Assembly: GCF_001677475.2 (NCBI RefSeq)
Contig: NZ_CP015229.1
DNA from: Escherichia coli
GTDB taxonomy: Bacteria; Pseudomonadota; Gammaproteobacteria; Enterobacterales; Enterobacteriaceae
Length of the DNA: 64,000 bases
Strand: one strand, 5' to 3'
Shown piece by piece: positions 62,862 to 64,000 of this stretch. The position numbers and the translations under genes are program-made. The notes below the pieces were generated by a model. That model was given only the letters and a program-made list of their open reading frames with translations. It was not told the DNA's origin and did not search any database. How positions within the stretch are numbered: position 1 is the first letter of the stretch; every line of letters starts with the position of its first letter.

Positions 62862-63368
62862 TTATTTCTTCGCTTCTACGCCATCAGTTTCAGAGCGAAT
62901 TAAAAATTTCTCAGTTGTTTGCGGAATATGCTGAATCAGCCAGTCGGCCATTTGCTTTTCCTCATTTAAAATCGCTTCGATGGTTGGAATTGAAGCTGTA
63001 TCACCGGCATTTTTTGCTGCTGCTAATAGTGAGGTGTAACACGCGATTTCAAATTGCTCGAAGACATATCCGCTAATAGAGCCTTTGACTATTTCATCAG
63101 AAGGGAATATACCACCGATTGACTGCCCAAGCGCAGCCATTTTACTCATGGAATCTTTAATGACTGAACGTGAAATGTCATTACGATCAAGAATAGTTTC
63201 CAGTTGAACTATCTGGTTTTTGGTTTCACTAAGATGTTGTTCAATACGAGCGCGTAGTTCAGGATAATTATCTATACGGCTGGCCATGGATTCAAGCATG
63301 GATTCGGCTTGCTTTTCCATTGCGTGGGCGTCACGTAACCAGTCATGATAATGATCAATACGATTCAT
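62862..63368 (-). CDS. yciE: ferritin-like (DUF892) stress protein YciE
   Basis: 168 aa. Confidence 0.9.
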   Translation of the reverse strand: MNRIDHYHDWLRDAHAMEKQAESMLESMASRIDNYPELRARIEQHLSETKNQIVQLETILDRNDISRSVIKDSMSKMAALGQSIGGIFPSDEIVKGSISGYVFEQFEIACYTSLLAAAKNAGDTASIPTIEAILNEEKQMADWLIQHIPQTTEKFLIRSETDGVEAKK

Positions 63369-63413
63369 GAAAATGTCCTCTTTATAAAATGACTAAAAGT
63401 TAAAGTTCATATT

Positions 63414-63914
63414 TCAGGCTTTATTTTCGGCTTTCTTATTTACGTTATTAAGGGCCAGATCAGTCAGTTTGATGTCGGTGGCCTTTTCTTCTTCCAGAGT
63501 TTCTTTCAGAAGCTTCGCTGCTTTACGGTAACCTAATTGTTCAGCCAGCGTCGCTAAGGTCCCGTAACTGGCGATCTCATAGTGCTCGACTTTCTGTGCA
63601 GCGGCAATCAGTGCGGCATCACGCACTTCGTTTTTCTCGGTGCTTTCGATGACCTCATTAGCTTCTTCAATAAGACCTTCCATGGCCACACATTTCATGC
63701 GCTTAATTTTCAGGTTCGGTTCGGATTCCACAACTTGATCAATTCGTTCAATCTGTCCATGAGTTTCCTCGAGGTGCGCATGAAAAGCCTGACTTAATTT
63801 TTCGTTTGATGTTGCTCTTGCGAGTTTTGCCAGTGCCCGGGTTAATTGTTTTTCTGCGCTGTAGGTATCTGAAAGCAGGTGAATAAATACATCTTCAATG
63901 GTCTTCATATTCAT
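63414..63914 (-). CDS. yciF: ferritin-like (DUF892) stress protein YciF
   Basis: ORF 63414..63962; ATG at 63914 gives MNMKTIEDVFIHLLSDTYSAEKQ..., 166 aa. Confidence 0.85.
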   Translation of the reverse strand: MNMKTIEDVFIHLLSDTYSAEKQLTRALAKLARATSNEKLSQAFHAHLEETHGQIERIDQVVESEPNLKIKRMKCVAMEGLIEEANEVIESTEKNEVRDAALIAAAQKVEHYEIASYGTLATLAEQLGYRKAAKLLKETLEEEKATDIKLTDLALNNVNKKAENKA

Positions 63915-64000
63915 ATTTTTCTCCAGTGAAATCACTGCGAGCCATACGGCCCGCAGATGCAATTATCTTTATCAGCTGATATTAATAATTAACGGTTAAT

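Follow-up and report, generated by a model that had tools for sequence, protein, structure and literature searches.

The right-hand end of the window, the 64,000-nucleotide stretch of Escherichia coli DNA analyzed here, carries two adjacent minus-strand open reading frames, as the first-pass annotation had described. These are yciE and yciF, which encode ferritin-like proteins of the DUF892 family, and they are followed on the other side of a short spacer by the stop codon of a third gene, yciG, at the last base of the window. The gene ompW lies on the opposite strand and converges on yciE. The coordinates of the genes and signals are collected in Table 1.

Table 1. Genes and sequence signals at the right-hand end of the window
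Feature	Position	Strand	Description
ompW	62164–62802	+	Convergent neighbor; PF03922, 272.6 bits; NCBIfam equivalog OmpW, 403.6 bits
Intrinsic terminator	62806–62838	-	Between the convergent yciE and ompW; terminator scan
yciE CDS	62862–63368	-	Open reading frame of 168 codons and a stop; DUF892 ferritin-like; final operon gene
yciE Shine-Dalgarno, AGAGGA	63376–63381	-	7 nt 5′ of the yciE ATG; read from the sequence
yciF CDS	63414–63914	-	Open reading frame, 166 aa plus stop; DUF892 ferritin-like; start ATG at 63914
yciF Shine-Dalgarno, GGAGA	63920–63924	-	6 nt 5′ of the ATG; read from the sequence
yciG-yciF spacer	63915–63999	-	85 nt; inside the published McbR and BasR probes
9-bp GC-rich stem-loop, CUGCGGGCC-GUAU-GGCUCGCAG	63935–63956	-	In the yciG-yciF spacer; RNA fold and alignment
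Outermost base of the yciG stop codon	64000	-	Position 5915 of contig L005 corresponds to window position 64000

The YciE sequence matches the Pfam DUF892 profile (PF05974) at profile positions 4–158 of 159 (E-value = 4e-51, 173.6 bits), and YciF, translated from the ATG at 63914, matches it at positions 1–158 (E-value = 3.1e-52, 177.2 bits). The gathering cut-off of the family is 23.7 bits, and the profile search thus upholds the assignment to DUF892 that had been proposed from the letters alone. As the scores are about 150 bits over the cut-off, YciE and YciF are not chance open reading frames. A search of all PDB chains shows that 166 of the 168 residues of YciE are the same in 3OGH, “Protein yciE” (the window has D5 for E and Q139 for H). 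The chain of 2GS4, “Protein yciF”, is the same as YciF at 164 of 166 residues, with P66 for S and L155 for I, and positions 1–166 of the one align with 1–166 of the other. The gene names given earlier are borne out by these matches and by the gene order, in which ompW faces yciE, yciF, yciG and trpA on the opposite strand. In thousands of E. coli genomes RefSeq assigns the same DNA to yciE and yciF, yet neither protein matches an NCBIfam model. A scan of positions 61000–64000 against Rfam gave no matches at E ≤ 1, and a tblastn search found no third DUF892 copy within the 64-kb window.

The two coding regions had been placed at 62862–63962. The lower boundary is exact and coincides with the final base of the yciE stop; the upper boundary is 48 nt too far. 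Position 63962 is a TTG that begins the longest open reading frame for yciF (63414–63962, 182 aa), but the true start is the ATG at 63914. This follows from the RefSeq coding sequence length of 501 nt and from the crystallized chain of 2GS4, which begins MNMKTIED and corresponds residue 1 to residue 1. It also follows from the ribosome-binding site GGAGA 6 nt upstream, of which GGAG is invariant in an alignment of four loci, and from the character of positions 63915–63962, where gaps between species are not multiples of three and where a conserved RNA hairpin is located.

The exact YciF sequence of the window is present in other public assemblies, and a lookup of that sequence yielded contig L005, which is 100% identical to the window over 6501 nt (positions 57500–64000). 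Because of this identity over the last 6.5 kb, L005 can be used to extend the locus past the window edge. Contigs with the exact YciF have the order trpE-D-C-B-A, a KGG protein of 59 aa, a DUF892 protein of 166 aa and a second DUF892 protein of 168 aa, followed on the convergent side by OmpW, YciC, YciB, YciA and TonB. In L005, trpA, yciG, yciF and yciE are on one strand and ompW is convergent. The KGG protein is YciG, which matches PF10685 at 64.8 bits; its gene is found at positions 5736–5915 of L005 and at 5001–5180 of L001, where position 5001 corresponds to window position 64000. Strain F9792 in RefSeq displays the comparable order, i.e. tonB, yciA, yciB, yciC, ompW (plus strand), yciE, yciF, yciG, trpA and trpB. 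The spacer between yciF and yciE is 45 nt (63369–63413) and contains the yciE ribosome-binding site; it has the same sequence in F9792. In L005 and F9792 alike, yciG, yciF and yciE lie in this order on a single strand between trpA and the convergent ompW, separated by short spacers. The window most likely ends in the final two genes of a chromosomal yciG-yciF-yciE transcription unit of E. coli (or Shigella). The earlier expectation that the operon runs on beyond position 64000 proved correct, since yciG follows in L005 after the 85-nt gap.

The three genes are bracketed by terminator-like hairpins, and another conserved hairpin is found between yciG and yciF. Upstream of yciG in L005 there are about 350 nt of AT-rich DNA, preceded by the trp operon terminator that follows trpA (L005 positions 5363–5383). 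At the other end, the terminator between yciE and ompW begins 24 nt past the yciE stop codon and consists of a 10-bp stem with six G-C pairs, a 3-nt loop and a UUUUUG tail. The hairpin itself is at 62816–62838, which corresponds to 7077–7099 of L005, and its RNA fold has a free energy of -18.3 kcal/mol (z = -2.82).

The locus is similar to that of E. coli K-12, whose proteins are those of 3OGH and 2GS4. The two loci agree in gene order, spacers, ribosome-binding sites and terminator, and they differ by the alleles at YciE positions 5 and 139 and YciF positions 66 and 155. In K-12, as in the window, the manganese catalase gene katN is absent. In other loci of this type katN directly follows yciE. 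It is found there in Salmonella at the same chromosomal position (L011, 5507–6486), in Leclercia at a different position (L012, 5523–6395), and in a second, prophage-adjacent copy of the genes in E. coli (L009, 5526–6416). The gap between yciE and ompW in the window is only 59 nt and holds no katN (PF05067), and tblastn with Salmonella KatN detected nothing significant in the 64-kb window that could represent a katN-like sequence or remnant. Salmonella enterica yciGFE-katN has the same position between trpA and ompW and the same KGG-DUF892-DUF892 order, its YciE is 85% identical to that of the window, and its YciF (PDB 4ERU) conserves Q54, E113 and E143. However katN lies between yciE and the terminator in Salmonella, where the window has 12 nt (62850–62862). 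Most of the yciE-ompW spacer, including the terminator, aligns with the DNA downstream of Salmonella katN over 58 nt (74% identity, E-value = 0.001), and the two terminators are homologous.

The second E. coli copy has been described in some pathogenic strains, e.g. as z1921–z1924 near CP-933X in EDL933 (PMC5363993). Its order is the same up to yciE, and its YciE is 88% identical to that of the window. It adjoins phage tail genes and carries katN, whereas the window copy is the core-genome one beside trpA. The window copy is the katN-less form of a four-gene module that encodes a KGG hydrophilin, two DUF892 proteins and a manganese catalase. As the four-gene module is found in several contexts, loss of katN from the E. 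coli core copy would be the simpler history.

YciE and YciF are homologous to each other, as had been claimed, with 38 of 164 residues identical (23%) and a BLASTP E-value of 4e-6. At this level of identity the duplication is ancient and not recent. Each paralogue has separate orthologues in Salmonella, Leclercia and Xanthomonas. The Salmonella, Leclercia and second-copy E. coli proteins are 82%–88% identical to YciE, among the matches listed, and 80%–86% identical to YciF. In a large protein search the best 120 matches listed are all from Enterobacteriaceae, with at least 71% identity. The PDB relatives are divided in the same manner: 3HIU from Xanthomonas (XCC3681) is YciE-like and matches the window YciE with an E-value of 4e-33, and 4ERU, 7TMV and 2GYQ are YciF-like. 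A recent tandem duplication, or decay of one copy to a pseudogene, might be suggested by two genes of one Pfam family that are adjacent on one strand. The low identity, the orthologues in other genera that each paralogue resembles at 80%–89%, and the separate PDB relatives speak against recent duplication. Decay is contradicted by the intact state of both open reading frames, by metal-ligand residues that are invariant, and by mostly synonymous changes in comparison with strain F9792, where yciE has 10 nucleotide differences and two amino acid changes and yciF has 11 nucleotide differences and one amino acid change. These changes are consistent with purifying selection on both genes. Recent duplication and decay were rejected on these grounds and have next to no probability.

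The spacer between yciG and yciF folds better as RNA than shuffled sequence does (-24.7 kcal/mol, z = -3.35). The 9-bp stem is kept at four diverged loci, i.e. the window type, Salmonella L011, Leclercia L012 and the second E. coli copy L009. The loop and the flanks vary, and the changes in the stem are all compatible with pairing (G-U/A-U and C-G/U-G). Double compensatory changes are not found among the four aligned loci, and the conservation of the stem across four sequences amounts to modest evidence. The hairpin may act as a partial terminator downstream of yciG, as a stabilizing 5′ structure or in RNA processing, or it may do none of these. A perfect 10-bp palindrome in the same spacer, ATCAGCTGAT (63971–63980, minus strand), was considered as a regulator site, but its sequence is not kept at the Salmonella, Leclercia and second-copy E. 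coli loci, and it was dropped as probably a chance occurrence.

The spacer also bears on how the genes are transcribed. In the avian pathogenic E. coli (APEC) strain X40, probes that cover it are reported to bind McbR and BasR in vitro, and the region is termed the yciF or yciFE promoter (PMC7705038; PMC12419081). By primer mapping the McbR probe extends from window position 63863 to 13 nt beyond the window end, and the reverse primer of the BasR probe is at 63915–63935. These results raise the possibility that yciF and yciE are transcribed mainly from a promoter of their own in the spacer, with the hairpin acting as the yciG terminator and without a single yciGFE message. In Salmonella and Leclercia the hairpin (63956–63935) is followed by a U-rich stretch, and Salmonella yciG has been treated as a small sigma-S-dependent transcript (PMC5437024), both of which would agree with such an arrangement. 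On the other hand, the E. coli tail (UGAUUUCAC) is a poor U-tract and the hairpin is not called by the terminator scan, and the gel-shift assays were done at micromolar protein. A consensus scan of the spacer did not reveal a sigma-70-like promoter; the scan gives sites no more numerous than in shuffled sequence, and therefore no promoter claim is drawn from it. The K-12 and Salmonella literature has one yciGFE(katN) operon with its promoter before yciG (PMC7705038; PMC8208086). A separate yciFE unit is accordingly a doubtful reading, although the single-operon and internal-promoter models are not mutually exclusive.

The operon promoter is outside of the window, upstream of yciG. According to the literature, transcription of yciGFE is sigma-S-dependent, H-NS silences the operon and YncC/McbR counters the silencing (Beraud et al. 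2010, cited in PMC7705038 and PMC13343897; PMC8208086). The Salmonella operon is induced by bile (PMC8208086). The G+C content is 41% for yciE and 44% for yciF, compared with 49.6% for the window, and the low values would fit targeting by H-NS.

The region is widely distributed in E. coli. Megablast with window positions 62000–64000 matches 5422 of 5426 complete E. coli genomes, with identities of at most 98.7% and with matches annotated as ompW, yciE, yciF and yciG. With blastn the yciE-yciF segment is found in 4729 of the 5426, almost always at 95%–99% identity, and 697 (about 13%) have no match to it. Thus yciGFE is not universal in E. coli. In strain MS20674, a cerebrospinal fluid isolate (NZ_CP082062.1), there is a prophage at the 3′ end of ompW, and the ompW remnant abuts trpA without yciGFE. 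Approximately 1300 complete genomes, about a quarter by subtraction, break homology at 62677/62684 inside ompW and have a prophage integrated.

In other strains prophages attach at the 3′ end of ompW (62678–62802), whereas the window has no prophage there. Where a lambdoid prophage is present at ompW (O157:H7, O111 and others), it leaves an “OmpW family” fragment beside yciE. In the two complete genomes closest to this part of the window, NZ_CP073719.1 and NZ_CP073718.1 (98.7%), an IS1A insertion splits the yciE/yciF pair. The gap between yciC and ompW contains a remnant of a YkgJ/CxxCxxCC cysteine-cluster gene (61838–61924, minus strand) that represents the last 29 codons at 83% identity; RefSeq treats it as a pseudogene in E. 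coli, and Salmonella has an intact YkgJ-type gene of 134 aa in the equivalent place (L011, 7463–7867).

No biochemical study of the E. coli proteins was found in the literature searched. Evidence for ferroxidase activity comes from one preprint on the Salmonella orthologue, which used in-vitro assays and over-expression. There YciF binds iron and has a ferroxidase activity that drops in the Q54A and E113Q mutants and disappears in E143D; the protein lowers reactive oxygen species under bile stress, and in the crystal its sites are occupied by Mg and not Fe (bioRxiv 10.1101/2023.01.20.524870). Q54, E113 and the bridging E143 are all found in the window YciF, and their YciE counterparts are Q52, E107 and E137. 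An alignment of eight orthologues, four of each protein, shows no variation at these three sites or at E21, E50 and E110 (YciF numbering). These comparisons argue strongly that E. coli YciF would have ferroxidase activity, and less strongly that YciE would. YciE has a Lys at the position of YciF His52, and its metal site may therefore differ. Both window proteins are assigned a four-helix-bundle ferritin-like fold, as each differs by two residues from a crystallized chain.

Ferritin, bacterioferritin, Dps and rubrerythrin share the four-helix bundle and a carboxylate-bridged di-metal site with YciE and YciF, and ferroxidase activity is reported for YciF. Membership of the ferritin-like superfamily and the carboxylate-rich di-metal sites could be taken to mean that YciE and YciF store iron in cages, as classical ferritin, bacterioferritin and Dps do. 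However neither protein matches the Pfam Ferritin family (PF00210) at E ≤ 0.01, and 3OGH and 2GS4 are listed as DUF892/ferritin-like dimers (PMC3843698). Salmonella YciF runs at about 100–109 kDa, and the authors state that there is no cage (bioRxiv 10.1101/2023.01.20.524870). YciE and YciF are thus dimers or small oligomers, unlike the 12- or 24-mer cages of ferritin-type proteins, and cage formation is very improbable.

The best overall explanation, to which we give a probability of about 0.85, is that the window ends in the last genes of yciGFE, in a katN-less form of the module, and that these encode di-iron proteins that oxidize Fe(II) and do not form cages. YciF and YciE would be four-helix-bundle, ferritin-like proteins with di-iron sites but without ferritin cages. 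In stationary-phase or stressed cells, under envelope or oxidative stress, they would bind Fe(II) and would oxidize and sequester it. The proposed ligands are Glu and Gln residues, in YciF E21, E50, Q54, E110, E113 and E143. Oxidation of Fe(II) would keep the iron from Fenton chemistry and lower reactive oxygen species.

The chief rival explanation is a role related to peroxide and tied to the ancestral catalase partner. Here YciE and YciF would be peroxide-directed di-metal proteins, similar to rubrerythrin or manganese catalase or serving as accessory or metal-delivery partners of KatN, and the ferroxidase activity seen in vitro would be a side reaction. The KGG-DUF892-DUF892-Mn_catalase module is common to Salmonella, Leclercia and the second E. 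coli copy, and the ancestral link to a manganese catalase could point to peroxide rather than iron. The APEC papers tie yciFE expression to resistance to H2O2 (PMC7705038; PMC12419081), and YciF displays a sub-threshold match to Rubrerythrin (PF02915) of 18.7 bits, where the gathering cut-off is 22.8; YciE has no match. However the core copy of E. coli has remained intact without katN and under apparent purifying selection, so its function cannot depend on KatN. In addition, iron binding and ligand-dependent ferroxidase activity have been measured for Salmonella YciF, and deletion of the Xanthomonas yciE-yciF-XC_3754 cluster lowers intracellular iron (PMC5130282). In Xanthomonas campestris the YciE-like gene (3HIU) and a YciF-like DUF892 gene are likewise adjacent and are linked to iron, but the orthology is distant, the third gene is another one and the regulation differs (XibR/iron). 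The peroxide-directed role is considered unlikely, and oxidation of Fe(II) is preferred.

The genes yciE and yciF are already known, with solved structures and a published operon, and nothing about them is unusual. This end of the window belongs to the ordinary, well-annotated core or accessory genome of E. coli and carries little weight for discovery. What the E. coli proteins do biochemically, YciE included, is inferred from one Salmonella study. The analysis is of use for bookkeeping: the yciF start is corrected, the continuation of the operon into yciG is confirmed, and the copy is recognized as the katN-less form of a conserved oxidative- and iron-stress module.

Two further readings are put forward jointly and tentatively. 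One is that the yciG-yciF hairpin is a functional RNA element. The other, drawn from the invariant pairing of one YciF-type with one YciE-type gene, is that YciE and YciF form an active hetero-oligomer. Neither was found described in the literature searched, and the pair taken together is a speculative proposal. If the first is true, the hairpin would uncouple the amount of YciG from that of YciF and YciE, either as a leaky terminator or through RNA processing or stability, and the RNA element might overlap the DNA reported to be bound by McbR and BasR. On the second reading the active species would be the YciE-YciF hetero-oligomer rather than the homodimers that have been crystallized.
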